Sequence record: NC_028248.1
DNA length: 64,000 nucleotides
Reading direction: 5' to 3' (one strand)
DNA from: Escherichia phage slur16
The notes under the pieces were generated by a model that was not told the origin of the DNA, made no database searches, and was given only the letters and a program-made list of their open reading frames with translations. Position numbers and translations under genes: made by a program. This document shows, piece after piece, positions 18,307 through 47,578 of this stretch; position 1 is the stretch's first letter, and every line of letters begins with the position of its first letter.

Positions 18307-18314
18307 AACTGACC

Positions 18315-19541
18315 TCAGAAAGGGATCGAGTCATCGAACTCATACTGTGCTGGATTCTGATCCATCGGGTCATCTTCCTCATCATTTACAGGAGGAGCGT
18401 CTACAGTGTTTTGCTGTGGAGCGGCTTCCTGTTTGGCAGCCTGAGGTTCTTGATGGTCAGTTGACCCAGCACCGTTCTTGATCCAATCGTACAACGGCTC
18501 AGCCAGATTAGTCAAGACATCTTTTGCTTCTGCAGTAATTGCCGCTGCAAAATCATCAACTTTCGTTTTCTTGTCAATACGGCGACAAGCGTTCAACACC
18601 GCATTACCGACACTGGCACCTACTTCATCCTCAGTTCGGTTGGTGGCTTGAGCATACTCTTTCTTAAGCTCAATGGTGACTACGTGCAGTGTTTTAGCCA
18701 CGCTTAGTGGGTCGTCCACCTTAAACCCGCGATCTAGGATGATTTGCAACGCATTGATGCTATGTCCCGTCTCCACACCAATAGGGTCGTAAGAGGATTT
18801 ACGCTTGCCACCAGAGCCTTGGGTGCCGTTCTCTGCCTTAGGTGGATAGGCTTTGAAACCACTGATAATGTTTCCGGTGTCTTTGTCAACAATGGCTGCA
18901 ACACGACCACCTACCACCAGGTCTTTAAGCTGCTCATCAGTGACAACCATGGCACCTTCGCCAATCTTGTGGTCATTAACAGTAACCACGTTGCCAACAA
19001 TCTGAGTCACATCGCCATAGATGCGTAAAACGTCCTGATTGGCATTCTGCTGAGGTTTCTGCTTCTGGCCTTGTGATTGTGCACCTTGTTGCTGTTTTTG
19101 CTGCTGAGTCGCTGCTGGAGCCTCTCCTGCACCCAGCTTGACCATCTTAGCTAGTGAGCCTTTGTAATAGGTCTTACCGTTATGCTCGTTTGCCTTCAAA
19201 GGGATATTTACGATCCATCCCGGCGTTACGGTTTCCCACTTGTCATCAATTTTAACAGAGACAGAGTCTTGATGACCAGGTTTAAGCAGCTTATCACCCA
19301 TACTGATCCAAACTTCTTCACCACCTTGAAGCAGGTTATCAGAGGAATCCAGTTCAGAAATCAGTAAAGAGATGGTGTGGCTGGATTCAATTTTCTTACC
19401 TTGCCACACAGTGGTTTTAATACCTGTTGTAGGATCAGCACCTTTGATAGGTTTGATGCTGACACGTTTAATCATGCCGTGAGCCAGTAAAACAGTTTCA
19501 CGCGGATTCATCGGGTTAGCGAATTGTTGAATAACGCTCAT
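18315..19541 (-). CDS. single-stranded DNA-binding protein-like, with acidic C-terminal tip
   Basis: C-terminus …YEFDDSIPF closely matches the bacterial SSB tip; Gln/Ala-rich linker; position next to replication genes. Confidence 0.5.
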   Translation of the reverse strand: MSVIQQFANPMNPRETVLLAHGMIKRVSIKPIKGADPTTGIKTTVWQGKKIESSHTISLLISELDSSDNLLQGGEEVWISMGDKLLKPGHQDSVSVKIDDKWETVTPGWIVNIPLKANEHNGKTYYKGSLAKMVKLGAGEAPAATQQQKQQQGAQSQGQKQKPQQNANQDVLRIYGDVTQIVGNVVTVNDHKIGEGAMVVTDEQLKDLVVGGRVAAIVDKDTGNIISGFKAYPPKAENGTQGSGGKRKSSYDPIGVETGHSINALQIILDRGFKVDDPLSVAKTLHVVTIELKKEYAQATNRTEDEVGASVGNAVLNACRRIDKKTKVDDFAAAITAEAKDVLTNLAEPLYDWIKNGAGSTDHQEPQAAKQEAAPQQNTVDAPPVNDEEDDPMDQNPAQYEFDDSIPF

Positions 19542-19906
19542 TATTTGTCTCCTTGTTCTTCGTTAGTGTTTGCTGTGTGTGCAAACCCTGCTTGAATTAA
19601 TTTGTCCTGAACTTGAGCCAACAGGCCCATTGCAAAACTTGTAGTCCCAGAGAGGGCCATTAGCATATCTCGTTGTTGAGCTACCCAACCTAAGGCATAG
19701 TCCAAACGACGATATTTTTCTTCTTCACGCAGAGCCTGAAATAATTGTTCAGCCTCCGGTTGTTGTGTGAGCTCCTGAAGTCTTCCCATGAAAGAAGAAA
19801 GCACTAGCAAAAGAGACACTTGATCTTTACTTAACCCTAAGAAAAATTCTTGAGGTTGTTCTTGCTCGTTCATCGCAACCGACGCTTGATCGTTCATTTG
19901 TTCCAT
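19541..19906 (-). CDS. hypothetical protein (121 aa)
   Basis: Track ORF; start overlaps the SSB-like gene stop. Confidence 0.45.
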   Translation of the reverse strand: MEQMNDQASVAMNEQEQPQEFFLGLSKDQVSLLLVLSSFMGRLQELTQQPEAEQLFQALREEEKYRRLDYALGWVAQQRDMLMALSGTTSFAMGLLAQVQDKLIQAGFAHTANTNEEQGDK

Positions 19907-19989
19907 TATGGAATCTCCGATTTTATTTGAACAACATAGAAGGAGACACTATTTTAGCATCCCCTTCTGTAAATTACAATAGATATTTG

Positions 19990-20235
19990 TTAGCCAATCA
20001 CTTCAAAAGTTCCCCAATTCCCGTCCAGCAGGCAGGTGATCGGATCCCCATCGTCGTCAAAGATTTCAAAGTTTTCAGCATCCAGGATGTGGCCCTCGAA
20101 CACAATACTTTCGTCGCCACCACCAGAAATAACAGCGTATTCCTTACCTTGAGTCAAGTTTTGACACCCTTTGCCACCAAAACCTACTTCAACACAACGT
20201 ACTTTCTGTCCTACGCGAGCAACTACTTCAGTCAT
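19990..20235 (-). CDS. hypothetical protein (81 aa)
   Basis: Track ORF. Confidence 0.4.
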   Translation of the reverse strand: MTEVVARVGQKVRCVEVGFGGKGCQNLTQGKEYAVISGGGDESIVFEGHILDAENFEIFDDDGDPITCLLDGNWGTFEVIG

Positions 20236-20252
20236 CTTAAGGTCTCCTGATA

Positions 20253-20573
20253 TTAATCGTCAAGTTCAAAATAGATTTTAACAGCTTCATCAAAGATTGG
20301 AATCCCGATGTTGTTGATAAGCTGCCAAACTACCATATCTTTACCTGGATCTGGGAGAATGTCAACCTTTCTCCATGCGCTGTATACCCAGTTCGGACCG
20401 CCTTCTGCACTAACTGGCAGATTTTCACCAGCTTCCTGTAGATACTTATACAGCAAAAGATATTCTGGATACTCTAGAACACTGTCCTCTGTAGTATATA
20501 GCAGTTCACGGTATACTTTTAAGAACCCTGCTGGGGTAATGTTTTCAGTCTTCATTTGCCGCTTCTCCTGCAT
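20253..20573 (-). CDS. hypothetical protein (106 aa)
   Basis: Track ORF. Confidence 0.45.
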   Translation of the reverse strand: MQEKRQMKTENITPAGFLKVYRELLYTTEDSVLEYPEYLLLYKYLQEAGENLPVSAEGGPNWVYSAWRKVDILPDPGKDMVVWQLINNIGIPIFDEAVKIYFELDD

Positions 20574-20937
20574 TCATCAGGTCTGCCATAGCGTCACCCA
20601 CGAAGAGAACAACCACATCGTTGACAGCGTCAGCATCATCTTTGTTGACGTTGCTGAATTTAGGACACACAGCAATGATCATATAGACACCGTTACCCAC
20701 CTGAACTGTCCGTGTGGTGCACATCATGGCTGTATTTGTGCCTTCTTTGAAGGCGAAGCCTTGAAGACGCTCCTCTAAAGTGTTACCGGTAGATTTCAGA
20801 AGCGCCAGCTCGTCCAAGGCATAGATGATATCTCCTGAAGTTAGTGTTGCCTTGCCATCAGACACCATAATCACTCCATCAGCACCGTCAAGCTTAGAGG
20901 CTTCAAAGATATCAATATCCCAAATATTTTTCATCAC
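20545..20937 (-). CDS. hypothetical protein (130 aa)
   Basis: Track ORF. Confidence 0.45.
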   Translation of the reverse strand: MMKNIWDIDIFEASKLDGADGVIMVSDGKATLTSGDIIYALDELALLKSTGNTLEERLQGFAFKEGTNTAMMCTTRTVQVGNGVYMIIAVCPKFSNVNKDDADAVNDVVVLFVGDAMADLMNAGEAANED

Positions 20938-21266
20938 GCTTCCTCGTCGTCTAAGTAATCATCAAGAGAGGTGAAGATTTCACCGAAGTATTCTAAGATT
21001 TCTAGCTCACGTGTGGTGCAGAAAACACAGTCACCGTTGTCATCCTCGATAACGGCCTTTTTACCCAGCACATCTACTTCAAGTTTATCGTTCAACAGGA
21101 CAGCTCCTGTGTAAACTTTGTCGGCTGTACAGTCCCGAAAAGCAGAATCCTTCTCCAGATAGTCTGGCTTAACCTTGGCTTTAATTCGTTGATATTGTTT
21201 AGTCATTGCTGTGGTCCCCTTTCGTTTTGATAGGGCCATTATATTAGGCCCCATCACTGTTGTCAA
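20934..21266 (-). CDS. hypothetical protein, paralog of 21270..21524
   Basis: Shares KP…D.AF.DCT…DD.GD.V.CT..E pattern with the adjacent ORF. Confidence 0.45.
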   Translation of the reverse strand: MTTVMGPNIMALSKRKGTTAMTKQYQRIKAKVKPDYLEKDSAFRDCTADKVYTGAVLLNDKLEVDVLGKKAVIEDDNGDCVFCTTRELEILEYFGEIFTSLDDYLDDEEA

Positions 21267-21269
21267 GTA

Positions 21270-21524
21270 TTAATGTTCAGGTTTTACAAAAACTACTTCG
21301 TTAACAGTGCACCAGACAGAATCTCCTTCGTCATCTTTAAAGGTAAGGCACTGGGCTGAGTTTTCCAGCTCATCAATCTCTTCTTGTGATAAAGGAGCCC
21401 CTTCTTCCAAAAGGGCTTTTACTAAAGGGTTCTCACAAAACTCTGCTTCATAAATAGCACCAAGCGTGCAATCTTTAAAAGCTCGGTCATTTGCAACGCA
21501 TGCTGGTTTCAACATGATTTTCAT
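21270..21524 (-). CDS. hypothetical protein, paralog of 20934..21266
   Basis: DRAFKDCTLGAIY / DSAFRDCTADKVY and DSVWCTVNE / DCVFCTTRE alignable by eye. Confidence 0.45.
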   Translation of the reverse strand: MKIMLKPACVANDRAFKDCTLGAIYEAEFCENPLVKALLEEGAPLSQEEIDELENSAQCLTFKDDEGDSVWCTVNEVVFVKPEH

Positions 21525-21600
21525 TTTAGCAGTCTCCTCAATTATTTAAAAATCAACTCTCTGTTTGTGTGAAGCATCTTATATCTAATCTTACTTCTTA

Positions 21601-21999
21601 TCAATGACTATTTTCAATCAGCCACACAGGGTCGAGGTAAATTTGTTGGCGTGTTGCCCAATGACAAACTTCATTGTACGTCTGAACCTCTTTGTCTGTC
21701 AATTCACGAATAGGCTCATCTATACCCTCATTTTTGTGGTAATCCCAGTCGGCATCGATTTCCCACAGCCATGACTTGTTGTCACCACGCTTACGCACAC
21801 AGAAGTCACCAGGACGGCCTGCCAGTGCATTTAAGAACTCGTTCTCTGCTCGCTCCTGAAGAATGCTAAGGAGCAAAACGTTGGAGCATGACCGTAAAAT
21901 ATGCTTCAGCTCGCAGTCATCAATCTCAACTTCAATACGTTGTTTGACTGTGTGGGTACCTTTTACTAACATTCTACCTCCTCTATACAAACTCTGCAA
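21601..21999 (-). CDS. hypothetical protein (132 aa)
   Basis: Track ORF. Confidence 0.45.
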   Translation of the reverse strand: MQSLYRGGRMLVKGTHTVKQRIEVEIDDCELKHILRSCSNVLLLSILQERAENEFLNALAGRPGDFCVRKRGDNKSWLWEIDADWDYHKNEGIDEPIRELTDKEVQTYNEVCHWATRQQIYLDPVWLIENSH

Positions 22000-22177
22000 G
22001 TGTTGTGTTGTTCACTGCACCGCAGTAAATGGAGTATCCCAGCCCATTAGGGTGCAGAAACCACGGCGTGCCGAAATTATCTTTCACGTAGACATCGCCG
22101 TTGCTTGTAAAGGGCCAATATTCTTCACCAAGGGTGAAATACCTACTCATACCCTCAGCCAGATACTTTACTTTCAT
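21983..22177 (-). CDS. hypothetical protein (64 aa)
   Basis: Track ORF. Confidence 0.35.
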   Translation of the reverse strand: MKVKYLAEGMSRYFTLGEEYWPFTSNGDVYVKDNFGTPWFLHPNGLGYSIYCGAVNNTTLAEFV

Positions 22178-22401
22178 AGGTCCTCTTCAACAGCTACAAA
22201 CTTGGCAAGCAGGGTGGTTCCGTAGATATGATACTCACCGTTTGCCAGATGGGAGATAAACCAGGCAATCCCTTCCTCGTCTTTAATCATCTTGTTTGCA
22301 CGAGCTTTATCGTAATAAACCTCGTAGGTCTTTCCTTCTTTAAAGAATGACAGGTCTGTCATCTTTTCTTCTACAAAGGTAGCTTTAACCAAAGTCGTCA
22401 T
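22174..22401 (-). CDS. hypothetical protein (75 aa)
   Basis: Track ORF. Confidence 0.4.
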   Translation of the reverse strand: MTTLVKATFVEEKMTDLSFFKEGKTYEVYYDKARANKMIKDEEGIAWFISHLANGEYHIYGTTLLAKFVAVEEDL

Positions 22402-22805
22402 TGATCAGTCTCCTTCTTGTTAAGTCTGAATACTGCAATAATAGCATTCCCAAGGTGCAGTGTCAAATCATTTCCAAGATACCACAGCATTCCACGGTCA
22501 TCTTTGATGAAAGGGTAGCAATTTGGTGCCTTCTCTTTAATGAAAGGGTGACAATCTGGTGCCTTCCAGACATTGTACACTTTCCCAACCTGAAAGAAAT
22601 CAGGCCCTGTTGGGATTTTAGTGCCTGGCCACACTTGAGATACCTGAACACACTCCACCTGCATAATAACAGGGATAGTCATGGATGTAAATGTTTTTGT
22701 TGGTTCTACTACCATAAAAGTCTCCTCTTTGCTCAACAACACTTCCATGTGTTGATAGTTTACATTAGTGACAATCACCCCAATTACGACCACACAGGTA
22801 TTCAC
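22398..22805 (-). CDS. hypothetical protein (135 aa; start uncertain)
   Basis: Track start overlaps the polymerase 3-prime end by 40 nt; internal Met at 22748 is an alternative. Confidence 0.4.
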   Translation of the reverse strand: MNTCVVVIGVIVTNVNYQHMEVLLSKEETFMVVEPTKTFTSMTIPVIMQVECVQVSQVWPGTKIPTGPDFFQVGKVYNVWKAPDCHPFIKEKAPNCYPFIKDDRGMLWYLGNDLTLHLGNAIIAVFRLNKKETDQ

Positions 22806-25542
22806 CTGTGATCTGGAACGGGACGCCCATCATTTTAGAAGCTTGCCAGAAGCAATGCACCACCATTTCACCCACAGGGCTCCAGATAAGTTCAAGCTTT
22901 CCGTCATCGTTCAGGATAGGATCGTACACCGTGTTTCCGTCTCTGTCAACCACTTCGTTTCCGTCCTCATCCTTGCGTGCCTTTTTGTACTTATGACCGT
23001 CGAACACATGAAGTTTGGCCTCCTGCTCTGCCTTAAATGCTTCCAGTTCTTCGATTGTGTCGAAGGTGTACACAGTCTTATACTTCGGTGTGTCAGGGAC
23101 TTGAAGCTGATATTCGTCATGGTAATAGATAATACGACGAACACCTTCATCGTACCACCCACGCTTCACCATTTGATGGTGCATGAGTATCCCAACTAAG
23201 TCACACAACGATGCGCCGCCATTTTGTTGGTATGCATTAAGTAAAGAGTGTTTAGATCGGGTCCAGATAGCATGACCATCAAAAGAGTAGATAAACTTCT
23301 TACCCGTTGCTTCCCAGAATTTCTCCAGATCTTCTTTACGCCCCTTAAGACCAGGGTTGGCATCCCAGAGTGCATCGATTACCCTTTGTCCCAACTCTGG
23401 AGAGATGTCCAGCATATCTGCAACTTTATCTTTTTGTGCCCCATACATAACCCCATACGTGATAGGTTTACCGTCGTTACGAGACACCTCTCTACCTGCT
23501 ACTTTTGTATATGCCTCAGCATTGTTTTGGTGTGCGTCCCCGTTACTTACAACATCGTAATACAGGCCGTTGTCGAACTCAAAGGCACCCCAAGCCCCGA
23601 TAAGCTGCTCTAAGTTGGACCCGTCAATACCGATCTCAAAGTATCCTGGAGGAACACCCCACAGACTACGCATCTCTTTACCCATAACCACTTTAGGAGA
23701 TGGTTTAGGCATGTTTGCACAAATACTGTGTTTCTGTCGGGAAGTGTTTGTTAATCCAGAACTTTTAGCAGGAAGCTTATGGTCAATCTTCAAACGTGGG
23801 TGATTAAGAAGACCAGTATCAACCTTATCCTCCTTGATTGGATCAAGGACCGATCTGCGGTTTCGCAATGATAACCACAAGACGATATCTTTAGCCATCT
23901 CTCCGTTCAATTTTTCAAGATTCGGGCATAGGTGTCCAAACGTATCTTTCAGTTGCGGAGAAGTAATAAGTGCCCTAGCTTTTCTACGTATTTTCCCGAA
24001 TACTTCCTTTTTAATCCTTTCGGAGTTAGGAAAGCTTCGGAACTTGTGCACGGTTGTCTGGAACTTAGCATCAGTTTTGTTCCAGAAGTTGATAATTAGG
24101 TCACAATACTCTGACTCTAAAAGCTCGTCCATATATGCATACACTCGTGCATCAACATCTGCATCAGGTAGAGCTTTCTTCTTGCTGTCTTTAGTTACAT
24201 CCTTAGTTCTCCACATTGTCGGAAGCCAACCAGCACTGATCAGGTATCGCTTAATATCGTCCTGATTGCTGATTTTCATAGGTATCTTGCAGTCAGGCAT
24301 TCGCTTCTGCTGTAGATCACTTATTGCCTGATCCATTAGCTCTTTAGGTAAAGGTTGTGGTGTGGAGGTGCCCTTGATATAGCCCCTCAAGAAATCCGCC
24401 ATCTTATCAGGGTCTTTACAGCCCATCTCTTCACACCATTTTATCCCCATCTTACTGACATCTCCTGTGGAGGTAAATGCTCGCTTAGGAGGAGCTTTGA
24501 ATTCTAAAGCACTCATGTCCACAGGGTAGCCAAGCTTGTCTTTTAACCATTTCCAACCATTATTGGAGATTGTCCCATCCTGGTTAAACGGCTTTTCAGG
24601 GAACTTAGGCCGCTGAGACATTGATAACTCTTTTAAAGGAAGTTGTGGTTCAACACGATCAGCGATCTCTTTCATCCACGCATCGCAGCGGTCACGTAAA
24701 GCAATAGCCCCATCTATGTCGAAATACACACCCTGTCGAGCCTGCAGCTCCATCAGGAAATGCTGCAGCATGCCTCGGCGTAATGCATTCTTCCAGGTAA
24801 TCTTCTTGAATCCTTTAGGCTTCTCTTTGGCAGGGTCATACATAAAGTTCTGCATGTCAGATTTGCCGTAGAATACACCTTTTGATTCCGCTACCAACTC
24901 TTTCCAGAGCAACTCCTGGATGATAACGTCCTCGAACACACGATCCACATATTTCCACAGCGGAAGATCGCGCCAGTCATCAATTTGAACTTTCTGGTTA
25001 CCAAGGGCGTAGCCCCATGCCATAAGGCCGTGAGGACCAACAGGTTGCATTTTCTTAGTAACCGGGTTGAATACAGCGTCCGGACAACCTTTTGGTAAAG
25101 GGCGATCAGGCCACAAGATTCGGCTCATAGCCAACGTATCAAACAGATTAACCTGGTGGTCGTTGATAGTCCCCATGCATTTAGGATCACGGAACATATC
25201 AAAATGAATACCGGATAATCTTTCCATTAGCATAAAGTCATAACTGTAGCAGTTATGGCAGTTCAAAGCTGTTGGTGACCAGTCAGAATTGCCTGTAAGC
25301 CAACCTTCCAACTCCGAAAAATCTGCTATGCGAACTTCAAAATCTTTATAAAGAGTTTTCTTTGCCAGAATGAAGTTCTTAGCCTTTTCTATATCCTCCT
25401 CGGAGTAGTGTGTGCGGTCATTTAGAGGAAGGAACAGCATAAAACGGTTCTTATTCAGCTCTTTAAACAGACCGCAGTGATAATAAAGATCTGGGTCTTC
25501 CAGCAAACCGGATGACTCAAAATCGAAAGACCACATACTCAT
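22765..25542 (-). CDS. DNA polymerase, family A (Pol I-like) with N-terminal 3-prime-5-prime exonuclease
   Basis: Exo motif FDFESSG; motif A IDGSNLEQ; motif B RNDGKPITYGVMYG; motif C YYHDEYQL; 925 aa. Confidence 0.85.
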   Translation of the reverse strand: MSMWSFDFESSGLLEDPDLYYHCGLFKELNKNRFMLFLPLNDRTHYSEEDIEKAKNFILAKKTLYKDFEVRIADFSELEGWLTGNSDWSPTALNCHNCYSYDFMLMERLSGIHFDMFRDPKCMGTINDHQVNLFDTLAMSRILWPDRPLPKGCPDAVFNPVTKKMQPVGPHGLMAWGYALGNQKVQIDDWRDLPLWKYVDRVFEDVIIQELLWKELVAESKGVFYGKSDMQNFMYDPAKEKPKGFKKITWKNALRRGMLQHFLMELQARQGVYFDIDGAIALRDRCDAWMKEIADRVEPQLPLKELSMSQRPKFPEKPFNQDGTISNNGWKWLKDKLGYPVDMSALEFKAPPKRAFTSTGDVSKMGIKWCEEMGCKDPDKMADFLRGYIKGTSTPQPLPKELMDQAISDLQQKRMPDCKIPMKISNQDDIKRYLISAGWLPTMWRTKDVTKDSKKKALPDADVDARVYAYMDELLESEYCDLIINFWNKTDAKFQTTVHKFRSFPNSERIKKEVFGKIRRKARALITSPQLKDTFGHLCPNLEKLNGEMAKDIVLWLSLRNRRSVLDPIKEDKVDTGLLNHPRLKIDHKLPAKSSGLTNTSRQKHSICANMPKPSPKVVMGKEMRSLWGVPPGYFEIGIDGSNLEQLIGAWGAFEFDNGLYYDVVSNGDAHQNNAEAYTKVAGREVSRNDGKPITYGVMYGAQKDKVADMLDISPELGQRVIDALWDANPGLKGRKEDLEKFWEATGKKFIYSFDGHAIWTRSKHSLLNAYQQNGGASLCDLVGILMHHQMVKRGWYDEGVRRIIYYHDEYQLQVPDTPKYKTVYTFDTIEELEAFKAEQEAKLHVFDGHKYKKARKDEDGNEVVDRDGNTVYDPILNDDGKLELIWSPVGEMVVHCFWQASKMMGVPFQITGEYLCGRNWGDCH

Positions 25543-25600
25543 ATACAGTTCTCCTTAAAGGGGAGGCGGTTGTACTACCCCTCCCACTCTTTGTTAAACA

Positions 25601-27679
25601 TTAAAAAGGCGTTTCATCATCCTCAAAACCAGGGACTGGGTCAGAGGATGGATCATCGTACTGGAGGTCTTCCTGCGTGTCAACAGGCTTAACAGTAGGA
25701 GTTACAACCTTATCAGCCACAACCTTGCCCATAGGTGTTTCTACAACTGCATGCTCCTGATCCTCAAACATAGCCTGAGGTCTCCAAACAACCTCCCCAC
25801 CTTCTCCGTCTGTAAACATTTGCATTTCTTTGTCCCAGTACCAATTACTGGCATCATGGAACTTACCTGTGTGCGGGTCCATAACCAAAGTGTCAGCAAT
25901 ACCTAGAGTTTTTGCTGGACGGTTTTTAAGACCTACCAGACGGACACGTCCACGAGAACGATCCACCATTTCTTCGGCCTCGACACCTATGACTACCCAA
26001 CTCAACTGTTCAAGCCCCGCCGATCCTCGCAAATTCTCTTTTCGCACAGGATACCAGAAAGGTAACGGGTTACCATCCTTGTCCTTAGGAGGCACAATCT
26101 CTGTACGTTTGAGGTGAGCGATCACCAAGATAAACACGTTAAACTGCTTACAAAACGCAGCCAGCTGAGTCATAGCCATGTCCAGTTCTTTTCGCTCATC
26201 CTTAACATTAAGCCCTGAAATTACCATGGACAGGTGATCCAGCACAATATAACGGCAATGGTACAGGCAAACCATTTGCTTAAGCTTGGTAATCAACTCG
26301 TCCACCGGAATAGATCCGAAATGTTTGAACACTTTGATTTTTCCAGCTTTTGCCCATGATTGGTGAATCTCTGCGTGTTCTTGATCAGTTAAAAACTGGC
26401 TAGGATCTTCAACAAACTCTTTAACATCAAACCCTAACTGGTTTGCATACAAGGAGTTAATTGCTTCCTCTGGGTCCTCCTCAAGATGGATCATACATAG
26501 ACGATCATCCTCTTCATAGTCATCAGCCTTCGGGCATGTCGGGTCCATTAGGTATCTTGCAATACAATGTTCCAGTTTTTTAGCTACAGTTGTTTTACCG
26601 CCCCCTGATGGCCCTGTAAGCATTACGAGTGTCCCTTTGTGCAAGCCTTTTAGCATTTTTTGCAGTTTTGGGAACTCTGCGCTGATATCTACCCCGTTGG
26701 AAGTCTTTTTCCGCAAAGACTCGATAGAGAAGTCTTCTAAATCCGACACAGCATCAGGCACATATTTAACAGGGTGCCGGAACATGTTGACAATATCTTC
26801 CAGCTTTTTAGCCTTCAGCATGTCACGGATATCTTTTACCCCGTCAGGGTCATTTACTTCACCAGGGTATTCTACGTGGTAAACGTTATCAGCCATCAAA
26901 AATGCTGCGATATTGTGCGTGGCCTCAACACCTTTAATGACGTGTTTTTGCTTCTCTACCTCGTTAGCTGCATCGTTATCCATTGCCAGCACAACTGTTC
27001 CATAGCTACGGATAAACTTCTCATTGTTTGCAAAAGTATCTACTGCGTTTGCACATCCACAGTTAATTCCAACAAAAGGCAGGCAGGGTTTTCCTGCCAG
27101 ATCACCACCGTTGATAACTGCGTCGATCCCGTCCTGGACCTCTTTAGCCCACTGCTTCACCTTTGCCGGGGCTTTAGCGTTGGTGAGAATCCCTTTTACT
27201 TGTATCTGATATGCAGCCTGCCATGCTGCAATAACATCACCTTCTCCCTCACAAACGTTAATCTGCTTACGGTTGTTGGAAGATGCACACAGCTTTTGAC
27301 CAAACATCTGGGAGTTGGCCTTTACGATGCCAACAACGGAGAAGTGGCCCCTTTGTTCTTTAGGAATAGTCCAGTCACGCTTTTTGAAACCGGACAGATT
27401 TCCGTAGCGGTCGTAATATGGGAAATATGTTGCAGTGACTGTCACACCGTCTTCTTGTGACAATGCTGATCGCACACCAAAATATTGTGCAGCCATCAGA
27501 CCGATATTTTGTTGTGGGACAGGGACAATTTTAGTATTTTCTAAAACAGTCTCTACAGTTTCAACTTCTTTTTCATCACGATAGTCTCGTTTCACACTTC
27601 CCCCACTTTTATACTTAGTTGCTTTCGGGTTTGGCTCACCGAAACGGTTGTATGCAGATGCCATAAATTTACTTCCCAT
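25601..27679 (-). CDS. primase-helicase (TOPRIM primase fused to DnaB-like helicase)
   Basis: TOPRIM-like VCEGEGD and LAMDNDAANE; Walker A GPSGGGKTT; acidic C-terminus …GFEDDETPF. Confidence 0.8.
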   Translation of the reverse strand: MGSKFMASAYNRFGEPNPKATKYKSGGSVKRDYRDEKEVETVETVLENTKIVPVPQQNIGLMAAQYFGVRSALSQEDGVTVTATYFPYYDRYGNLSGFKKRDWTIPKEQRGHFSVVGIVKANSQMFGQKLCASSNNRKQINVCEGEGDVIAAWQAAYQIQVKGILTNAKAPAKVKQWAKEVQDGIDAVINGGDLAGKPCLPFVGINCGCANAVDTFANNEKFIRSYGTVVLAMDNDAANEVEKQKHVIKGVEATHNIAAFLMADNVYHVEYPGEVNDPDGVKDIRDMLKAKKLEDIVNMFRHPVKYVPDAVSDLEDFSIESLRKKTSNGVDISAEFPKLQKMLKGLHKGTLVMLTGPSGGGKTTVAKKLEHCIARYLMDPTCPKADDYEEDDRLCMIHLEEDPEEAINSLYANQLGFDVKEFVEDPSQFLTDQEHAEIHQSWAKAGKIKVFKHFGSIPVDELITKLKQMVCLYHCRYIVLDHLSMVISGLNVKDERKELDMAMTQLAAFCKQFNVFILVIAHLKRTEIVPPKDKDGNPLPFWYPVRKENLRGSAGLEQLSWVVIGVEAEEMVDRSRGRVRLVGLKNRPAKTLGIADTLVMDPHTGKFHDASNWYWDKEMQMFTDGEGGEVVWRPQAMFEDQEHAVVETPMGKVVADKVVTPTVKPVDTQEDLQYDDPSSDPVPGFEDDETPF

Positions 27680-39708: not shown

Positions 39709-40604
39709 ATCTCCGCGTAAATTAAACTGGAATCAGTATACTTCTTTAACGGGTAAATATCCTGTCCATAGATGCCGTCATTAAACACCTCATCTACCCA
39801 AAGGCTACACTTATATCCCATCATTTCTAAAACGCCCATCTCTTCTTCGGTGAACTTATCACCGCTCTTGCAAGATGTCAATACCTCATTCTGTACTCTT
39901 GCTACCTCGAAGCGGTTATTGGCAATATCACTATTGGCAATCAAATACTCACCTAAAGGGTGTGCAGCATTAAAGATGCACAGTGGACGGTTGACGTAAT
40001 AGTCTCCCGGTGTATAAAAATTGTTGAGATCCTTCACCAGAACATTCTTATCAGTCACTTCATTTATAACATCATGCATATCACACATCTTTATATGTTT
40101 GAGGATTCCATCCCCCATCACAAAATAAAAACTTGCTGAGACACTCTCGGCATAGATCTTACTAGATCCGTTGTAGTTGTATTTTACGCGAATGCTTACA
40201 GGGGTTTTGCCTGTCGCGTTAGCCATCATCCAAAGGAACGGAAGTTCAAACCTCTCCTCTGAGGAAACAAAAGGTGAAGTTGCCAGAGATCGGAAACCTC
40301 CAGAAAAGTTGAAAGTTACAGAGCCGCTCCGGCGGTATGATACCGCGTATTCTACTTTTATATCGACGTACCCATTGGAATAGGTGTGTCCTTCATTATC
40401 TAAATATGTCCACTTATCAGACCCAGATACCAATCTACGCTCAATAACCTTCATCACTACAGGAATTAGTGGGTTGGTACAAACCGCTTTTGAAGTAGCT
40501 TTATCATCTAAAGCCTCGTAAATTGCAGAAAGGATGTCCCCAGCTGAAAGATTGGTTGTTATGTCCTGTTTCCACCGCGTACTAAAACTGTTAAGATTTG
40601 CCAT
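39705..40604 (-). CDS. hypothetical protein (299 aa), first gene of the leftward unit
   Basis: Track ORF; start faces the divergent intergenic region 40605-40680. Confidence 0.5.
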   Translation of the reverse strand: MANLNSFSTRWKQDITTNLSAGDILSAIYEALDDKATSKAVCTNPLIPVVMKVIERRLVSGSDKWTYLDNEGHTYSNGYVDIKVEYAVSYRRSGSVTFNFSGGFRSLATSPFVSSEERFELPFLWMMANATGKTPVSIRVKYNYNGSSKIYAESVSASFYFVMGDGILKHIKMCDMHDVINEVTDKNVLVKDLNNFYTPGDYYVNRPLCIFNAAHPLGEYLIANSDIANNRFEVARVQNEVLTSCKSGDKFTEEEMGVLEMMGYKCSLWVDEVFNDGIYGQDIYPLKKYTDSSLIYAEI

Positions 40605-40683
40605 AAGTAAGTGCTCCTATGTTAGTTTTCTTTCGAATGGGTGCACTATATTGTGGAGTTAGAGTAAAGTCAACACGTTTTTG

Positions 40684-41724
40684 ATGTTGACATCTGTTGA
40701 GACAATTGATACGATTTCTTCACTTACAGAGCACGAGAGACGACTCATGAATCTTGAAAAATATTATACACCAGAAGAGTTAGAGCGCTTGCTCAAAAAA
40801 TATAGACGCAAACAGAATAACGCACGGAAACGAGATATAGAGTTCGACCTGTCATGGGAAGAATACCTCCTATTTGGTAAAAAACTTTTAGGGGAGGGGG
40901 TATGCGACTACACCCTTATACCTTTCGACATGCACACAGATGAAAACGGACTGGGAAATCCTTTCTACCCATCTCTGGAGCGGATAGATGATGAAGGTCC
41001 TTACGCAATTGATAATTGTTGTGTGGTAGGGTTGAGGTGCAATGCTCTGAAAGACTGTCTGGTAGATAAAAAGACTGCAATCCTGATTAAAGACAAAACT
41101 GATCGAAAAATTGTCCAGCAGATGATGCTCCACCTGAGCGAAGAGCGTATGGAGAAATTGAAAGGTGATTATACTTTTGAAGATTTCATCTTGCAATACG
41201 GGACAGAAGAAGATAAACTAGCACTATTTGACGAAGAGGAGGAAGATATGTCACCAATGCAGGACTTTAAAAATTTCATGGCTGATCGTGCAGCCAACAA
41301 ACACATTTCAGACATCGTAAACGAGACTGTGGCAGAAGAAATTGAAGAACAGAACTCTGAAGAGGAAAAAGATCCTCAGGAGGTCGAAGAGGAGATTGCA
41401 GAAGAAGTTCCTGCACTGCCTGATGATGTTGAGATTGCTAAGGCTTACACTTTCTATTGTCAAACGTTCTACGATGCAGGTATGAAAGTTGATCTGTCGT
41501 TCAGCCAATTTAAGAGTTCGTATATTCGCAAATGCTGTGCTTTAACTGGTGAACGTCTCGGAGCTGGACTTAAACCACTGTTGGTGACCGACTGGAATAA
41601 AGGTTTCACTAAAGGAAACTTTATGGTAGTATCTCCAATTATGGAGAAAGCTATGACAGATCTTATGAAGACCACCCGCATGACAATGACCGAGTTGGCA
41701 GGTATTTTCAAACACGTTAAATAA
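40684..41724 (+). CDS. protein with two degenerate HNH / endonuclease VII-like repeats and an acidic linker
   Basis: Repeat 1 DLSWEEY…CDYT…SLERIDDEGPYAIDNCCVVGLRCNALK; repeat 2 DLSFSQF…CALTGERL…LLVTDWNKGFTKGNFMVVSPIMEKAM; track TTG start 40681, no clear RBS. Confidence 0.4.
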   Translation: MLTSVETIDTISSLTEHERRLMNLEKYYTPEELERLLKKYRRKQNNARKRDIEFDLSWEEYLLFGKKLLGEGVCDYTLIPFDMHTDENGLGNPFYPSLERIDDEGPYAIDNCCVVGLRCNALKDCLVDKKTAILIKDKTDRKIVQQMMLHLSEERMEKLKGDYTFEDFILQYGTEEDKLALFDEEEEDMSPMQDFKNFMADRAANKHISDIVNETVAEEIEEQNSEEEKDPQEVEEEIAEEVPALPDDVEIAKAYTFYCQTFYDAGMKVDLSFSQFKSSYIRKCCALTGERLGAGLKPLLVTDWNKGFTKGNFMVVSPIMEKAMTDLMKTTRMTMTELAGIFKHVK

Positions 41725-41736
41725 TGACAGGGGCCA

Positions 41737-43218
41737 ATGGCCCCTTCTGGAGTTTTAATGGATAGCAGAAGTTCAGAAATCATTGCCTCACAGAAAGATG
41801 ATGCCCTGAGAATGTTGCAGGCTGCACGTATGTATCTCCTTGAAAAGCTGCCGTTTTATGGCACACTGCTGTCAGGGTTGCAGTTCGTAGAAAACCACAC
41901 ATGGTGCTCCACCATGGCAACCGACCATAAACGCATTTATTACAGCCCTGAGTTCATTATGGGATTGGCTGATGAACGCAAGGCTATTCTTAAGGCTTCT
42001 CTAACTGACGAGCAGTTTGAGATGGCTGAAGTTTTCTATTCCCCAAAATCTGTGAAAGAGGTGGCCTTCCTTCTGTCACATGAGGTGGGGCATATTATCT
42101 GTGATCACCTGGTCCGTGGTAAAAGCTTTGAGCCGGAACTGTTCAATATTGCTTGTGATCACGTTATCAACACAGGTCTTGTGGTTGACTTTAGCAAGCC
42201 TCCTTGTGTTTTCTTCCCGAAGGGGAAAAGCACTACGTTCGTGAAAGGCAAGCCTTTTGGCTTCTTAGCTAACTGCTACTGCGACATGAAGTTTCATGGA
42301 TGGATTGCTGAGAACGTCTATGCAGTTCTTGATAAGCAAAGAGATCAGAATAACGGTAAAAGTAAGAGCGGTAAAGGTGAGAACTCTCAAGGAGATAAGC
42401 GACAAACCGATGATCACATGAGTGGGAACGGTGGCACCAGTGATGATCTTGGAAAGGCTATGGGGTATGATCAGCCACAACCTGTAATCAGCCAATCTGA
42501 TAAAGATCAGGCCATGCAGGACTCTGGCGATATGCTGGAGGCAGCAATGCAAGCGTCCGGAGGTCGTTGCCCTGAGGCGGTTCGTGAGTTTGTCAAGAAT
42601 AGAGGTAAGCCTGTAATCAATTATATAGACATCATCAAGCAGCGTATGTTGTCTAAAAGAAAGGCCGAACTGACCTACAGAAAACCTGGTCGCCGATCTG
42701 GGTCTTTGACCAGCACAATGCGAAAAGTCGGAGCTATAAACAAGAACCAGCACGTTATTGTTCCTGGTCGTAATCCGGAAAACACTATAGATATTGTGGT
42801 GGCTTTAGACGTTTCTGGCTCGATCTCTCAAAGAACTTTAAAGAAAATGTTCAATGAAATCACCGGATTGTGCAATCTGTATAAAGAATTTAAGGTTACA
42901 ATGTTCTGTTGGTCAACTGAGGTTGGAGAGGTTAAAGTATACACTCGCGGCAACATAGACGAAATGATCAACTATGAGGTCCACTCAACATGGGGAACAA
43001 CAGCTGCTTGCGTGTTCGAGTATCTGGATGCCAACATACCAAATGCAAAAGATGTCATCGTCCTGACCGACCTATACTTTGAGCATAACTTTGAACAAAA
43101 GGCTGTTGACAACAAGTGGAAAAAGTACGATACTTTATGGGTTCTAACCGAAGGGTATAATAAAAATTATATCCCTAGCTTTGGTAAAACTGTGGAATTA
43201 ATCGAGTACGCTAAGTAA
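41737..43218 (+). CDS. VWA-domain protein with N-terminal HExxH metallopeptidase-like domain
   Basis: HExxH at SHEVGHIICDH; MIDAS-like VVALDVSGSIS; 493 aa. Confidence 0.65.
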   Translation: MAPSGVLMDSRSSEIIASQKDDALRMLQAARMYLLEKLPFYGTLLSGLQFVENHTWCSTMATDHKRIYYSPEFIMGLADERKAILKASLTDEQFEMAEVFYSPKSVKEVAFLLSHEVGHIICDHLVRGKSFEPELFNIACDHVINTGLVVDFSKPPCVFFPKGKSTTFVKGKPFGFLANCYCDMKFHGWIAENVYAVLDKQRDQNNGKSKSGKGENSQGDKRQTDDHMSGNGGTSDDLGKAMGYDQPQPVISQSDKDQAMQDSGDMLEAAMQASGGRCPEAVREFVKNRGKPVINYIDIIKQRMLSKRKAELTYRKPGRRSGSLTSTMRKVGAINKNQHVIVPGRNPENTIDIVVALDVSGSISQRTLKKMFNEITGLCNLYKEFKVTMFCWSTEVGEVKVYTRGNIDEMINYEVHSTWGTTAACVFEYLDANIPNAKDVIVLTDLYFEHNFEQKAVDNKWKKYDTLWVLTEGYNKNYIPSFGKTVELIEYAK

Positions 43219-43224
43219 GAGAGG

Positions 43225-43491
43225 ATGTTATTTATGGCAACAGAGGTAGTAATTAAAGCTGAACGCCCAGTTAAAAAAGCTATCAACACGTTCCCTGTGG
43301 GAACCATTGTGAGCATGATCACAGAGTCAGGTCGTGTATCTACGCTGCTGATTGTGAAATCTGCATGTTCTTCTTGTGTGTGGGCTTACGATCTGGACGA
43401 GAAAGAACTAAAAGATTTTGTTGGGGAGCTGAAAGCAACCGAGCTCGATGCTCGTATCGAAGTATTTGGTGAAACTATGGAGGAAGAGTAA
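43225..43491 (+). CDS. hypothetical protein (88 aa)
   Basis: Track ORF; GAGAGGA before ATG. Confidence 0.45.
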   Translation: MLFMATEVVIKAERPVKKAINTFPVGTIVSMITESGRVSTLLIVKSACSSCVWAYDLDEKELKDFVGELKATELDARIEVFGETMEEE

Positions 43492-43754
43492 TGACCACGA
43501 AAATCACTATTGCAGAACCGAAAGCTAACACTCAACCCATCGAAAAGTTTAAATGCGGTGAGGTGGTAACATTTACGCCAGATAATGAAGATGCTAAGAT
43601 TTTCGCCATGGTCACAGCTGAGTGGATGTGTGACAACACCACACAGGTTCTGCGTTTTGACACCTACCTTACAGATGAAATCAGGAACGATAAGATCGTG
43701 ACTGGTGTAGATACTGAAATTATTTTCTACAAGAGCTTTTTAGAGGGTTTCTAA
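43491..43754 (+). CDS. hypothetical protein (87 aa)
   Basis: Track ORF; ATG overlaps upstream stop. Confidence 0.45.
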   Translation: MTTKITIAEPKANTQPIEKFKCGEVVTFTPDNEDAKIFAMVTAEWMCDNTTQVLRFDTYLTDEIRNDKIVTGVDTEIIFYKSFLEGF

Positions 43755-43755
43755 T

Positions 43756-43992
43756 ATGGCGAAAATTCGTAAATTATCCAACAATCAGGTTGTTAAAGAT
43801 TTTGAACCCGGGGAGATTCTGTATGTTCGTGATGCAGATGACGAAGGAGAAGATCTTGTTATGCTGCTAGGACACGCTGCTGAGGACGGATGCATCCAGG
43901 CTGTTTTTCTTGAAACAGCTATGGTGCACTGGATAGAGCTGGACATGAAAGCACGAAAACCTAAAGCAGAAATCCTGATTTACGAAGATTAA
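43756..43992 (+). CDS. hypothetical protein (78 aa)
   Basis: Track ORF. Confidence 0.45.
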   Translation: MAKIRKLSNNQVVKDFEPGEILYVRDADDEGEDLVMLLGHAAEDGCIQAVFLETAMVHWIELDMKARKPKAEILIYED

Positions 43993-44008
43993 CAAAAAGG
44001 AGAGAGCC

Positions 44009-44458
44009 GTGTTGAGCAAACGTGAATGCGACAGCATTAGCCTGAATTCTTATAAGAAACAATGGTTTGGGGTAGAAGTTTGCCGACTGCGGCTAGGCTC
44101 CTACCTGAACTTCGTTTATTACGAGAGCGACAGTCGTATCGTTTCTTATGAAGTGTTCTACACTAAGAACACATTCGAACTGCGCCGTAAAGTAGAGGGA
44201 GGGAGAACTACCACCCAGAATAATTGGGAAACTATTCTGCCTCCAGATGTTATAGGAAGTCCCCTGAATGTATCTGAAGATGAAAATCTTATGGTTCATG
44301 CTATGATGGGACTTGACAGCTTAGAGCTGGCGATCTATGATATGTCCATCGAAGCAGTTAAGCTGGACTACATCGAAAACACTTTAGAGGAAGGTATCAA
44401 GAAGTTTCTCAGTGAGAAATTAAAAGATCACTTTCATAAGGAGCTATACCTGTTATGA
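44009..44458 (+). CDS. hypothetical protein (149 aa)
   Basis: Track ORF; AAAGGAGAGAG upstream. Confidence 0.45.
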   Translation: MLSKRECDSISLNSYKKQWFGVEVCRLRLGSYLNFVYYESDSRIVSYEVFYTKNTFELRRKVEGGRTTTQNNWETILPPDVIGSPLNVSEDENLMVHAMMGLDSLELAIYDMSIEAVKLDYIENTLEEGIKKFLSEKLKDHFHKELYLL

Positions 44459-44700
44459 AGACCCGTAAAGAACGTAACAAAATTTTACCTGGGGCTCTCG
44501 AACACCTGATGAAGTGCAGATCTATTTGGCACTCTGCCAAGGAAGGGCAGAAGGTGGTTGTGGTTAGTGACAATACCAACCCGTTTGGAGATTATACCAC
44601 CATGATGGCCCCATATGTCCGTGATGGCGTTGTGGAAGTGGTCCCTTACAACGGTCTGCATGAACGTCACTTTGAAAGCACTTTGCTAGTGGAGCTATAG
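44455..44700 (+). CDS. hypothetical protein (81 aa)
   Basis: Track ORF; overlapping start/stop. Confidence 0.45.
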   Translation: MKTRKERNKILPGALEHLMKCRSIWHSAKEGQKVVVVSDNTNPFGDYTTMMAPYVRDGVVEVVPYNGLHERHFESTLLVEL

Positions 44701-44702
44701 TC

Positions 44703-45269
44703 ATGGCGGTCAATGTGGCTTACAACACAGGAAAGCTTGACAGAGACATTGGGTGTCTTGTCCTTTCAGATACAGAAGAGTATTGGGGTCATGGGTTGCT
44801 GTCAGACCCACACCCGAGCAACCTTGTATCAACAGTGCTATACCGCTACGACCCTGTGCCAACGGTACACGACAAAGACATTCACGACCTTCGGATCAAG
44901 TGTCTGGAAGATCTGCTGAACAATGGTTGCAACGATCTGCGGGTAGCCAAAGAGAAGCTTACAAACATTCACAAAGAGGAAGTGATGAGCACCATCAGTA
45001 AGAGATCAGTGCACAAAAAGATGATGCTGAACTTTGCAATGGGTATCTACATGGACGGGTATAAGGGGGGTGATCCGATTCTCAAGCTTCGCTGCCCAAC
45101 ACTGTGGGAAAGAGTGGTTGACAGTAAGGACGGCACTGCCCTGCTCGAACTCCACACCGCAGGTTGGATTTGGCGGTATGTAGACGGATACCCTCTGTGG
45201 GCATGTGGACCTGGGGAATTTGTTGACAGACCTAGCGCGGTAGTGGACTTGCTATTACAGTTTGAATAA
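44703..45269 (+). CDS. hypothetical protein (188 aa)
   Basis: Track ORF. Confidence 0.45.
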   Translation: MAVNVAYNTGKLDRDIGCLVLSDTEEYWGHGLLSDPHPSNLVSTVLYRYDPVPTVHDKDIHDLRIKCLEDLLNNGCNDLRVAKEKLTNIHKEEVMSTISKRSVHKKMMLNFAMGIYMDGYKGGDPILKLRCPTLWERVVDSKDGTALLELHTAGWIWRYVDGYPLWACGPGEFVDRPSAVVDLLLQFE

Positions 45270-45328
45270 AAGGTGAGTTATAAGGTATTCATGCACCTAC
45301 CAACAACAATACAACAGGAGAGACTGAG

Positions 45329-45604
45329 ATGACGAAAGAAGAGGCCGACGTATTAGATTTTGCACTAGAGGCTACGCAGGAGGCTTTGGTGTTAGCTTGG
45401 AAAATGAACCAGCGTGCTGCAGAATGCAACCGCCGCATCAATGAGATTCTGGGCATGTCTATGTATGATTTTACCATGCATGCCGGAGAGATTCCTGAAT
45501 TAACTGCAGAGATGAATGATCTTGACAATAAAATTAATATCATTCTGAAGACAGCAGAAACAACTCACCAAACCGCCCGTAAATTTATCAACGAGAAGGT
45601 GTGA
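45329..45604 (+). CDS. hypothetical protein (91 aa)
   Basis: Track ORF; AGGAGAGA upstream. Confidence 0.45.
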   Translation: MTKEEADVLDFALEATQEALVLAWKMNQRAAECNRRINEILGMSMYDFTMHAGEIPELTAEMNDLDNKINIILKTAETTHQTARKFINEKV

Positions 45605-46071
45605 ATATGGACTACAGCTACTGCGGGGAAGAAGTTCCTTTTAACTACAGCAATCTTACCACGAGCAATCCATATGAGACTCGCCACGGCACGCACATCA
45701 TCGCCATTGACTTTGATGGAACGTTTAATGCGAGCCCTTTCATCTTCTCCCGCCTGATCAGGGATCTGAAGAAAGAGGGGTGGACAGTCTACCTTGTGAC
45801 TTTCCGATTCATTACTCAAGACAATGTAGACATCGAGTATTGGCGCAAGGAGCTCAATGTTGGTGTGTTTTATACTGGTGGTGTTCAGAAGGCAGCCTAT
45901 CTGGCGCAGTTTGATATCTACCCAGATATCTGGATTGATGATTCTCCGGCATGTATTCCGGCTAAGAATCAGTTAGAGTTTGCAATGAAGGAGATCGAGT
46001 ATAAGTCTGAGGCTAAGCGGAACGGATGGCCCTTTATTATTGAAGATTACCCAGATCCTGAACCGGAGTAA
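45601..46071 (+). CDS. HAD-superfamily phosphatase-like protein
   Basis: IIAIDFDGTF (DxDxT motif I), LVTFR, WIDDS. Confidence 0.5.
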   Translation: MNMDYSYCGEEVPFNYSNLTTSNPYETRHGTHIIAIDFDGTFNASPFIFSRLIRDLKKEGWTVYLVTFRFITQDNVDIEYWRKELNVGVFYTGGVQKAAYLAQFDIYPDIWIDDSPACIPAKNQLEFAMKEIEYKSEAKRNGWPFIIEDYPDPEPE

Positions 46072-46076
46072 GAGCC

Positions 46077-46247
46077 ATGAGGCGAAGATATCATTACCTG
46101 ATGTGGAAGTTATATCAAAATGCTGCCAAAGCCTATCATACCATGTTTGGCAATGACGATCACTACATCATGCTACATCTCACCGCTATTGAGCATCACA
46201 ATGAGTGGATTCATGCAATCGTGGCAGGTGATAAAGACTTTAAGTAA
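46077..46247 (+). CDS. small hypothetical protein (56 aa)
   Basis: Found by eye: ATG at 46077 (MRRRYHYLMWKLYQNAAKAY…), TAA at 46245-46247. Confidence 0.3.
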   Translation: MRRRYHYLMWKLYQNAAKAYHTMFGNDDHYIMLHLTAIEHHNEWIHAIVAGDKDFK

Positions 46248-46374
46248 GATATGACTTAAAACGCAACAGGAGCCCCTGCAGCGCACTTAACTCACCGCAG
46301 GTATAAGATTGCATTGCTAGGTAGTTTTGTGCGTCATTTTTAGTTACATAGCTTTCTAGACGGAGACTGATTAA

Positions 46375-46755
46375 ATGTGCAAGTGTAAATCCTATAATTG
46401 GAAAGTGAAAGGTGCCAAGCATCCAAATGTTATCGTTGATGTGCCTAAAAAGCTCCGTGACGGCAAAAAACGTGTGTGCCTTGATAAGTGCATGGTTAAG
46501 CCTATTATGAGTCTATGGGCAGCAGGATTGAAAACTCTAAACTGCTGCTGTGGTCACAACAAAGATGTTCCAAGCATCATTATCCCAGAAGATGCAGACC
46601 CTAAAGCTTATGCCAAAATACTGACCCGCTACCCAAGCACCTTTCTGATCGGAAAATGGTGTCACGATGAACTTCAATGGTGGATAGCGTACGGTAGTGT
46701 AGGTGCTGCTTTTGGCTTCCCAGCTTTGTCAGAGCGCTACGTCAAAGCGTCATAA
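46375..46755 (+). CDS. hypothetical Cys-rich protein (126 aa)
   Basis: MCKCKSY…CLDKC…CCCGHN cysteine clusters. Confidence 0.45.
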   Translation: MCKCKSYNWKVKGAKHPNVIVDVPKKLRDGKKRVCLDKCMVKPIMSLWAAGLKTLNCCCGHNKDVPSIIIPEDADPKAYAKILTRYPSTFLIGKWCHDELQWWIAYGSVGAAFGFPALSERYVKAS

Positions 46756-46880
46756 TCTGTTTTAAGGCCTCAAACGAGGCCTGTGCCTTCATAAATTGCC
46801 CTACCTTATGTGATTACCCTCCTGAACAAAATACCTCCCCAAAATCGTTTAAAATTAAGCTTGACCCCAACATCAGATCT

Positions 46881-47327: not shown

Positions 47328-47330
47328 GAA

Positions 47331-47531
47331 ATGGCTGATTTTTGTAAAGATTGCTCTGAAGAGTTGTTTGGCTTTGACTGCAAAGATTTGGAAGGTCTGA
47401 TCACTGAGGATCAGTGGAAGGAAGGCTATGCAGCACCTGTTATTTGTGAAGGTTGTGGCTATACCTATGTTGACCATAAAGGTAAGCGCGTCAAGCCGTC
47501 TGAAGATGGGGCATGTTGGGAGTATTACTAA
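47331..47531 (+). CDS. hypothetical zinc-ribbon protein (66 aa)
   Basis: CKDCS…CEGCG cysteine pairs. Confidence 0.45.
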   Translation: MADFCKDCSEELFGFDCKDLEGLITEDQWKEGYAAPVICEGCGYTYVDHKGKRVKPSEDGACWEYY

Positions 47532-47540
47532 CTATAAAAA

Positions 47541-47566: not shown

Positions 47567-47578
47567 TTTACCCCCTTG

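Follow-up and report, generated by a model that had tools for sequence, protein, structure and literature searches.

Why should two different components of a phage replisome end in nearly the same acidic peptide, and what would such a peptide bind? The question is raised by a 64,000-nucleotide stretch of Escherichia phage slur16 (NC_028248.1), hereafter the window, where between positions 18315 and 27679 the gene for a family A DNA polymerase sits between those for a primase-helicase and for a protein resembling those that bind single-stranded DNA (ssDNA), the SSBs, all on the minus strand (Table 1). The SSB-like protein of 408 amino acids (aa) ends ...NPAQYEFDDSIPF, with the tip EFDDSIPF, and the 692-aa primase-helicase ends ...DPVPGFEDDETPF, with the tip FEDDETPF. 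An earlier reading of the DNA letters, the original prediction, had seen in these acidic, Pro-Phe-terminated tips the kind of hook that recruits partner proteins, and had suggested a docking site common to both, perhaps on the polymerase. Translation of the two genes confirms the acidic Pro-Phe tips on both proteins, and they are unique among the real genes of the genome.

Results

Two rare and deeply conserved tips

The region is 100% identical to that of slur12 (LN881735; Vequintavirus, rV5-like) and 97–99% identical to those of more than 100 further rV5-like phages. The full 64-kb window has no exact counterpart as a substring of LN881735, in either orientation and with circular reading included, and so differs from that record somewhere beyond 18315–27679. 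Among the 450 six-frame open reading frames (ORFs) of the window, a Pro-Phe end or an acidic tip with a terminal Phe occurs only in the two proteins described above. A scan of the rebuilt 136,898-bp slur12 genome, with 1,340 ORFs, returned five that end in Pro-Phe, the other three being short, non-acidic and not annotated as genes; acidic tips ending in Pro-Phe number two, both on replisome proteins. The only other acidic, Phe-terminated tip of that genome, ...NDAEEEIWEF, belongs to a NrdB homologue outside the region (L006 23268–24356), and the tail of NrdB binds NrdA.

The original prediction proposed looking for the tips in related phages, and there Pro-Phe is kept in all 55 full-length SSB-like homologues and in 114 of 120 primase-helicase homologues, a conservation that reaches well past that of the rest of the proteins. 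In a 30-sequence alignment of the SSB-like family, reaching down to 29% identity, Pro407 and Phe408 are among just 10 invariant columns, and in both families the tails otherwise vary while Pro-Phe stays. Each tail comprises about 50 residues, is predicted to be disordered, carries a net charge of −12 and is rich in Pro, Gln, Asp and Glu, an anatomy that fits recruitment hooks of the type first suggested. Short motifs can recur by chance, and two unrelated C-termini might have converged in this way; such convergence is effectively refuted by the conservation of Pro-Phe in both families, which holds over deep divergence, and by the restriction of the motif to two replisome ORFs in the entire genome.

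The two tips can be compared with that of the host protein, E. coli SSB, which ends SNEPPMDFDDDIPF (PDB 1eqq/4mz9). Members of the SSB-like family end D-[FW]-D-[DE]-[DS]-[IV]-P-F, with variants DDDIPF, EDVPF and DESIPF, and several of them, at 30–37% identity, end EPPMDFDDDIPF, an exact copy of the final 12 residues of E. coli SSB. The end of the primase-helicase family is [DE]-x-[DE]-[DN]-D-[ETSC]-P-F; set against the bacterial SSB C-terminal consensus (SSB-Ct, D-D-D-I-P-F), it has the acidic run and the Pro-Phe, but the residue before Pro-Phe (position −2) is never I, V or L. An exhaustive profile search of 1.84 billion representatives placed this form within a wider family: 73 of the 147 top primase-helicase members (50%) have a terminal F, Y or W, in most cases preceded by acidic residues, and nine end in Pro-Phe, against a baseline of roughly 9% of arbitrary ORFs ending in an aromatic residue. 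From these sequences we read a C-terminal aromatic hook as an old trait of gp4-like proteins (compare ...DTDF in T7), and the SSB-like D-D-x-T-P-F form as a clade-specific version of it.

A T7-type replisome with an unusual SSB-like protein

By its gp4-like primase-helicase and gp5-like polymerase (PolA), the replisome encoded in the window is, at the level of sequence relationship, of the T7 type. A profile built from 33 primase-helicase homologues matches the T7 gp4 chains 5ikn, 6n7i and 1q57 over profile positions 190–606, with E values of 1e-36 to 1e-39 (best 7.5e-39), followed by Twinkle. The AlphaFold2 (AF2) model of the protein has a folded N-terminal domain (residues 40–305), a RecA-type helicase domain and a disordered stretch at 639–692, and Pfam Toprim_2 is present in one distant homologue. 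As in T7 gp4, a single polypeptide thus carries an N-terminal primase domain and an SF4, DnaB-like helicase. For PolA, the solved relatives found by sequence are T7 gp5 chains only, with E of about 1e-15; T7 R590/R591 align with PolA K748/K749, and K748 is invariant in 19 polymerases. The phage's own replication genes include the polymerase, the primase-helicase, a ligase and an extra helicase.

Both large genes vary in structure among relatives. The polymerase gene is continuous here and divided into two or three ORFs (for example, 809 + 118 aa) in many relatives, the splitting insertions being 270–870 bp long and some of them annotated as HNH homing endonucleases (L001 10391–13497; L002 2655–5708; L010, L016, L017, L020, L021 and L024). 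Many primase-helicase homologues have 975–1,025 aa and not about 690 (P0062–P0064, P0103–P0151; L024 3885–6851), and their ends are still ..SPF or ..CPF; our query aligns with them in two stretches, on either side of an insert of about 300 aa that is possibly an intein.

In rV5-like records the 408-aa gene nearly always bears the label 'hypothetical protein'; that of JLBYU08 alone names it a putative SSB. A Pfam scan at E ≤ 0.01 assigned the protein to no family, PF00436 included, and a profile search of solved chains (profile A1) returned no gp2.5, its sole match being E. coli SSB, through the tail only. In the AF2 model (30-sequence alignment; mean predicted local distance difference test, pLDDT, 73.8) the N-terminal domain is beta-rich and has SSB-like fold matches, the nearest being oligonucleotide-binding (OB) folds of the SSB/RPA type; in a Foldseek search of the PDB nothing reached significance (best E 0.025), which leaves the middle domain and the helical bundle without an assignment. 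The small beta domain that follows is missing from short family members (275–308 aa), and the best-conserved motifs of the body, GxETGHxINA and VGASVGNAVLNACRR, lie in the four-helix bundle. Fold, architecture and gene position justify the label 'SSB-like', and on the evidence of its fold, its tip and its place within a replication module the protein would bind ssDNA; by sequence it stands outside the bacterial SSB family, its body being a novel OB-fold protein. A 270-aa SSB-like ORF of a metagenomic relative (L040 13770–14582 = L062 9863–10675) ends ...STPSTRS and has no tip, probably through a frameshift or assembly error, and in a distant relative a 218-aa protein encoded between the polymerase and SSB-like genes (L004 8878–9534) has an acidic, Phe-terminated end, ...KKSLDDAWDDKF.

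Candidate receptors for the two tails

Following from the T7 precedent, we propose that both tails are recruitment hooks that share one or more receptors, most likely the phage polymerase, and we hold this reading tentatively, at a little less than an even chance. The tips would act as flexible hooks on disordered tails of about 50 residues, the terminal Phe entering a hydrophobic pocket of the partner and the acidic residues lying on its basic rim. On the polymerase, the same basic and hydrophobic site or sites would be contested by the six tails of a helicase hexamer and by those of DNA-bound SSB, and through this competition the polymerase would stay tethered at the fork and be helped to displace SSB. 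In T7, the acidic tails of gp4 bind basic patches of gp5, and their removal causes a threefold loss of processivity (PMC8472574); the front basic patch of gp5, at K587, K589, R590 and R591, serves as anchor for the gp2.5 tail, and in PDB 6P7E a DTDF peptide mimicking the gp4 tail occupies this patch as well (PMC12339929). By this analogy, docking of both tails on PolA is reasonable and PolA is the most likely phage-encoded receptor; we infer every binding event in this phage, as well as the identity of the receptor.

Several observations weigh against a common receptor on the polymerase. PolA keeps only two of six residues of the T7 front basic patch (K587, K589, R590, R591, K594 and R599): K587/K589 correspond to a deletion, K594 to Y and R599 to H, and the equivalents of R599/K600 are lost (GHA) where relatives retain G-R-K. 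The residue at position −2 is I, V or L in the SSB-like family and E, T, S or C in the primase-helicase family, without exception. The carboxylate of the terminal Phe is free in both proteins here; some viable relatives bury it under the 15-aa C-terminal extension described below, as do 11 of the 55 SSB-like homologues, 2 of the 114 primase-helicases and both proteins of Cronobacter phage GAP31. Such burial is hard to square with the classical SSB-Ct pocket. Finally, we paired the two tips locus by locus, with the polymerase as anchor in 42 loci and the SSB-like gene in 16. With polymerases of 46% identity or more (Vequintavirinae and a Vibrio phage, L005), the helicase terminates in x-P-F and the SSB-type protein in DDDIPF; with those of about 25% identity, the SSB-type end is still DDDIPF, and the helicase ends ..EGSY, ..ESQY, ..DSNY, ..DMKF or ..AGDDE. 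The constraint on the SSB tip is thus independent of the helicase tail and probably of the polymerase too, and from these sequences we read the tip as held constant by something that varies with neither the helicase tail nor the polymerase clade.

That something might be the host. The tips might recruit host SSB-interacting proteins, and not the phage polymerase, to phage ssDNA or to the fork; candidates in the E. coli SSB interactome are RNase HI, PriA, topoisomerase III, RecQ, Exo I and the chi subunit. This account draws on the distant SSB-like members that copy the host's last 12 residues, and on the E. coli SSB tail as the only solved-protein match of the SSB-like profile. It also draws on a protein unrelated to the SSB-like one, phrog_2544 (333–402 aa, no Pfam match), which in phages with more distant polymerases occupies the equivalent place, downstream of the polymerase gene, and has the end ..DFDDDIPF (L005 17866–19074; L025, L026, L029, L030 and L043); its candidacy as an SSB could not be confirmed, SSB-family matches being limited to the tail. 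Invariance of the tip across clades whose polymerases and helicase tails differ widely, and its recurrence on phrog_2544, are as predicted if host proteins set the constraint. The interactions that the E. coli hexapeptide DDDIPF makes with many proteins are essential (PMC5872125); DnaG competes with chi for it (PMC3632105).

Against recruitment of host proteins stand the phage's own set of replication enzymes, the departure of EFDDSIPF from the host tip at two positions, the polar −2 residue that takes the helicase tip off the host consensus, and the precedent of phage-encoded partners for such tips, the NDYPPF tip of HK620 SSB being required to recruit the phage annealase Sak4 (PMC5928155). 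As the explanation of both tips in place of polymerase docking, we regard host recruitment as rather unlikely, though it is compatible with the polymerase model and a serious alternative or addition to it, with a strong case for the SSB tip. Since that tip copies the host SSB tip, it can probably engage host SSB-interacting proteins as well.

The acidity of the tails suggests yet another receptor, the SSB-like protein itself. Its tail may fill its own basic ssDNA groove, and the helicase tail may use the same groove to displace SSB, in which case the two tails would dock in this groove instead of on the polymerase. Both tails are disordered with a net charge of −12; the E. coli SSB tail weakly binds its own DNA-binding site, as cited in the HK620 paper (PMC5928155), and an AlphaFold model of gp2.5 puts the tail in the basic binding groove (PMC12339929). 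In our AF2 model, by contrast, the tip is left undocked on the OB domain, with almost all of residues 359–408 below pLDDT 50, and electrostatics leave the strict invariance of Pro-Phe unexplained. We consider this groove-filling role improbable as the explanation of the tips, while noting that it is compatible with the other models.

An endonuclease gene and an extension behind the tips

In the SSB-like gene, an insert carrying an HNH/EndoVII-like homing-endonuclease gene lies precisely between the terminal Phe codon and the ancestral TAA (junction 18307–18317, compared with the endonuclease-free JLBYU08). It brings a new TGA stop and a Shine–Dalgarno-like GAGG: the SSB-like gene here has TGA directly after TTC (Phe), and the endonuclease ORF starts eight bases on. 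Related endonuclease genes stand behind the SSB-like tip in L002 (207 aa) and L055, and behind the primase-helicase tip in L023, L073 and GAP31, and the endonuclease DNA behind the L073 primase-helicase and the L002 SSB-like gene shows 68% ungapped identity over 120 nucleotides, against a background of about 25%. A group I intron carrying the endonuclease gene was considered and rejected, there being no Rfam match anywhere in the window and no sensible splice junction by eye.

In some alleles there is no stop after the tip, and the protein continues for 15–16 further residues, A-P-[IV]-G-L-Q-Y-[GA]-[KR]-x-x-I-x-x-[LIF]. The extension occurs on the SSB-like gene (the 11 homologues mentioned above; loci L002 11225–11272 and L055), on the primase-helicase gene in P0069, P0078, L012, L020 and L023, and, as found by a protein search with a profile of 44-aa tails, on SSBs of the ordinary bacterial type from lambdoid, P22-like and Vibrio phages. 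Among these, an intact 168-aa prophage SSB (L071 2160–2666) ends ...EPPMDFDDDIPF-APVTLPFPRHAIHAI. Tip and extension together are present in 160 GenBank phage records, and, of 5,426 complete E. coli genomes, at least 169 have the prophage-SSB variant; we found no description of an extension after the Pro-Phe tip in the literature searched.

The codons of the extensions differ at many synonymous sites in the frame of the host gene, and the peptide is therefore under selection in that frame. The endonuclease gene often begins within the extension (L002, L055, L023 and GAP31), and several extended alleles have no endonuclease downstream. We rejected the idea that the extension is merely the 5′ end of the endonuclease gene, in view of the synonymous changes and of its presence without the endonuclease (L060, L063, L012 and prophage SSBs). 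We also rejected stop-codon readthrough as its source, the TGA here being followed by GGT CAG TTA TGA. In GAP31 (L070) the SSB-like and primase-helicase genes are both extended, contrary to the notion that the tips are redundant and never more than one is extended; either this group has no strict need of a free carboxylate on the Phe, or the extension is taken off, or it supplies another function.

The extension and the endonuclease family are common to both tips, so that the two C-termini behave as equivalent, interchangeable modules, in support of their functional equivalence. Extension subtypes also cut across gene families and contexts, and together with the related endonuclease DNA this argues that the module has moved between unrelated genes that end in a Pro-Phe tip. 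The same two observations could be turned against a shared partner altogether: a homing cassette that targets the tip might have moved between 3′ ends and co-converted the helicase tail, leaving the resemblance as a by-product. The primase-helicase Pro-Phe is, however, kept in a deep clade that includes Vibrio phages at 42–46% identity and is mostly cassette-free, and the helicase tip has a stable signature of its own in its polar −2 residue; both point to long-term selection and not to a recent conversion scar, and we give the by-product explanation very little credence.

More speculatively, and with a probability we place well on the low side, the tip and its optional extension may form a portable C-terminal module that a tip-targeting HNH/EndoVII family moves between unrelated replication genes, with the extension as a switch. 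The genes involved would be those of bacterial-type prophage SSBs, the phrog_4477 SSB-like protein and the gp4-like primase-helicase. The extension could mask the Phe carboxylate, blocking recruitment of host SSB partners or the sensing of phage SSBs by defence systems, several of which phage SSBs trigger (PMC13381803); it could also redirect the tail to a different partner. Movement of the module may be the route by which the helicase gained an SSB-type tip.

Neighbouring features

Coordinates of the genes, domains and tips are collected in Table 1. The 121-aa ORF next to the SSB-like gene has equivalents in JLBYU08, L002, L004 and GAP31, is called a second 'putative SSB' in JLBYU08 and is possibly a partner subunit of the SSB-like protein. 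Elsewhere in the window, GC skew and AT skew flip sign across approximately 40000–48000, as would be consistent with a gene block encoded on the opposite strand.

Table 1 Genes, domains and C-terminal tips of the replication region (window coordinates)
Feature	Coordinates	Strand	Basis or remark
HNH/EndoVII-like homing-endonuclease gene, 192 aa	17728–18306	−	phrog_1035, E 4.5e-34
SSB-like gene, 408 aa, phrog_4477 'unknown function'	18315–19541	−	OB domain, small beta domain, four-helix bundle, disordered tail, tip
SSB-Ct-type tip EFDDSIPF	18318–18341	−	E. coli SSB: DFDDDIPF
Disordered acidic/Pro/Gln tail, residues 359–408	18318–18467	−	pLDDT <50; 13 D/E, 1 K/R, net −12
Four-helix bundle, residues 250–358	18468–18794	−	AF2 pLDDT 83–95; alignment conservation
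Middle small beta domain, residues 170–236	18834–19034	−	AF2; gap in alignment for P0052–P0056
N-terminal OB-fold domain, residues 1–139, presumed ssDNA-binding module	19125–19541	−	
121-aa ORF, phrog_7310, unknown function	19541–19906	−	Stop overlaps SSB-like start codon (shared coordinate 19541)
T7 gp5-like family A DNA polymerase (PolA), 925 aa, candidate tail receptor	22765–25542	−	Weak Pfam DNA_pol_A match; PHROG DNA polymerase
T7 gp4-like bifunctional primase-helicase, 692 aa	25601–27679	−	Pfam DnaB_C, AAA_25; phrog_239 'DNA primase/helicase', E 6e-160
Tip FEDDETPF of primase-helicase	25604–25627	−	
Disordered acidic tail of primase-helicase, residues 639–692	25604–25765	−	pLDDT <50; 15 D/E, 3 K/R, net −12

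Discussion

If both tails share one receptor, rV5-like phages, which are widely used in E. coli biocontrol and in therapy collections, would supply a second and independent example of T7's strategy, with helicase and SSB alternating on the polymerase. The hook here is the host's own SSB tip, which raises the question of whether the phage replisome plugs into the host SSB interactome or keeps out of it. Carried by three unrelated protein families, the extension is an uncharacterised trait of SSB tails, and is relevant to studies of SSB partners, to recombineering compatibility and to defence systems triggered by phage SSBs.

Like T7, the phage combines a gp4-like primase-helicase, a gp5-like PolA and an SSB, and both non-polymerase proteins carry disordered, acidic, Phe-ended tails. 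Unlike that of T7, which ends ..D-x-D-F, the tip here is of the bacterial form ..D-x-P-F, the body of the SSB is related in sequence neither to gp2.5 nor to any solved SSB, and PolA preserves the front basic patch only in part. With bacterial SSBs the SSB-like protein shares an OB fold, a disordered linker and an acidic I-P-F tip; it differs from them in a body that is not PF00436 and has two extra domains, and in the related tip, polar at −2, that stands on a primase-helicase and not on a second SSB. T4 gp32 is another phage SSB whose acidic C-terminal region recruits several replisome and recombination proteins, and it lacks a Pro-Phe end; the T4 helicase is not reported to share the gp32 tail. 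HK620 has a phage SSB with a ..P-F tip that recruits a phage-encoded partner onto SSB-coated ssDNA (PMC5928155), although there the partner is of the recombinase class, the SSB is of the bacterial type and there is no report of the tip on a second protein.

The endonuclease genes resemble the free-standing HNH/EndoVII homing endonucleases of large lytic phages in their precise insertion at highly conserved coding sequence and in their patchy presence among close relatives. They differ in their target, the last codons of genes that end in an SSB tip, in at least three unrelated families, and in the associated in-frame 15-aa extension, conserved at the protein level, a combination for which the literature searched gave no description. 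The paired tips extend a principle known from T7, and the post-tip extension with its endonuclease module is the least expected result of this comparison.

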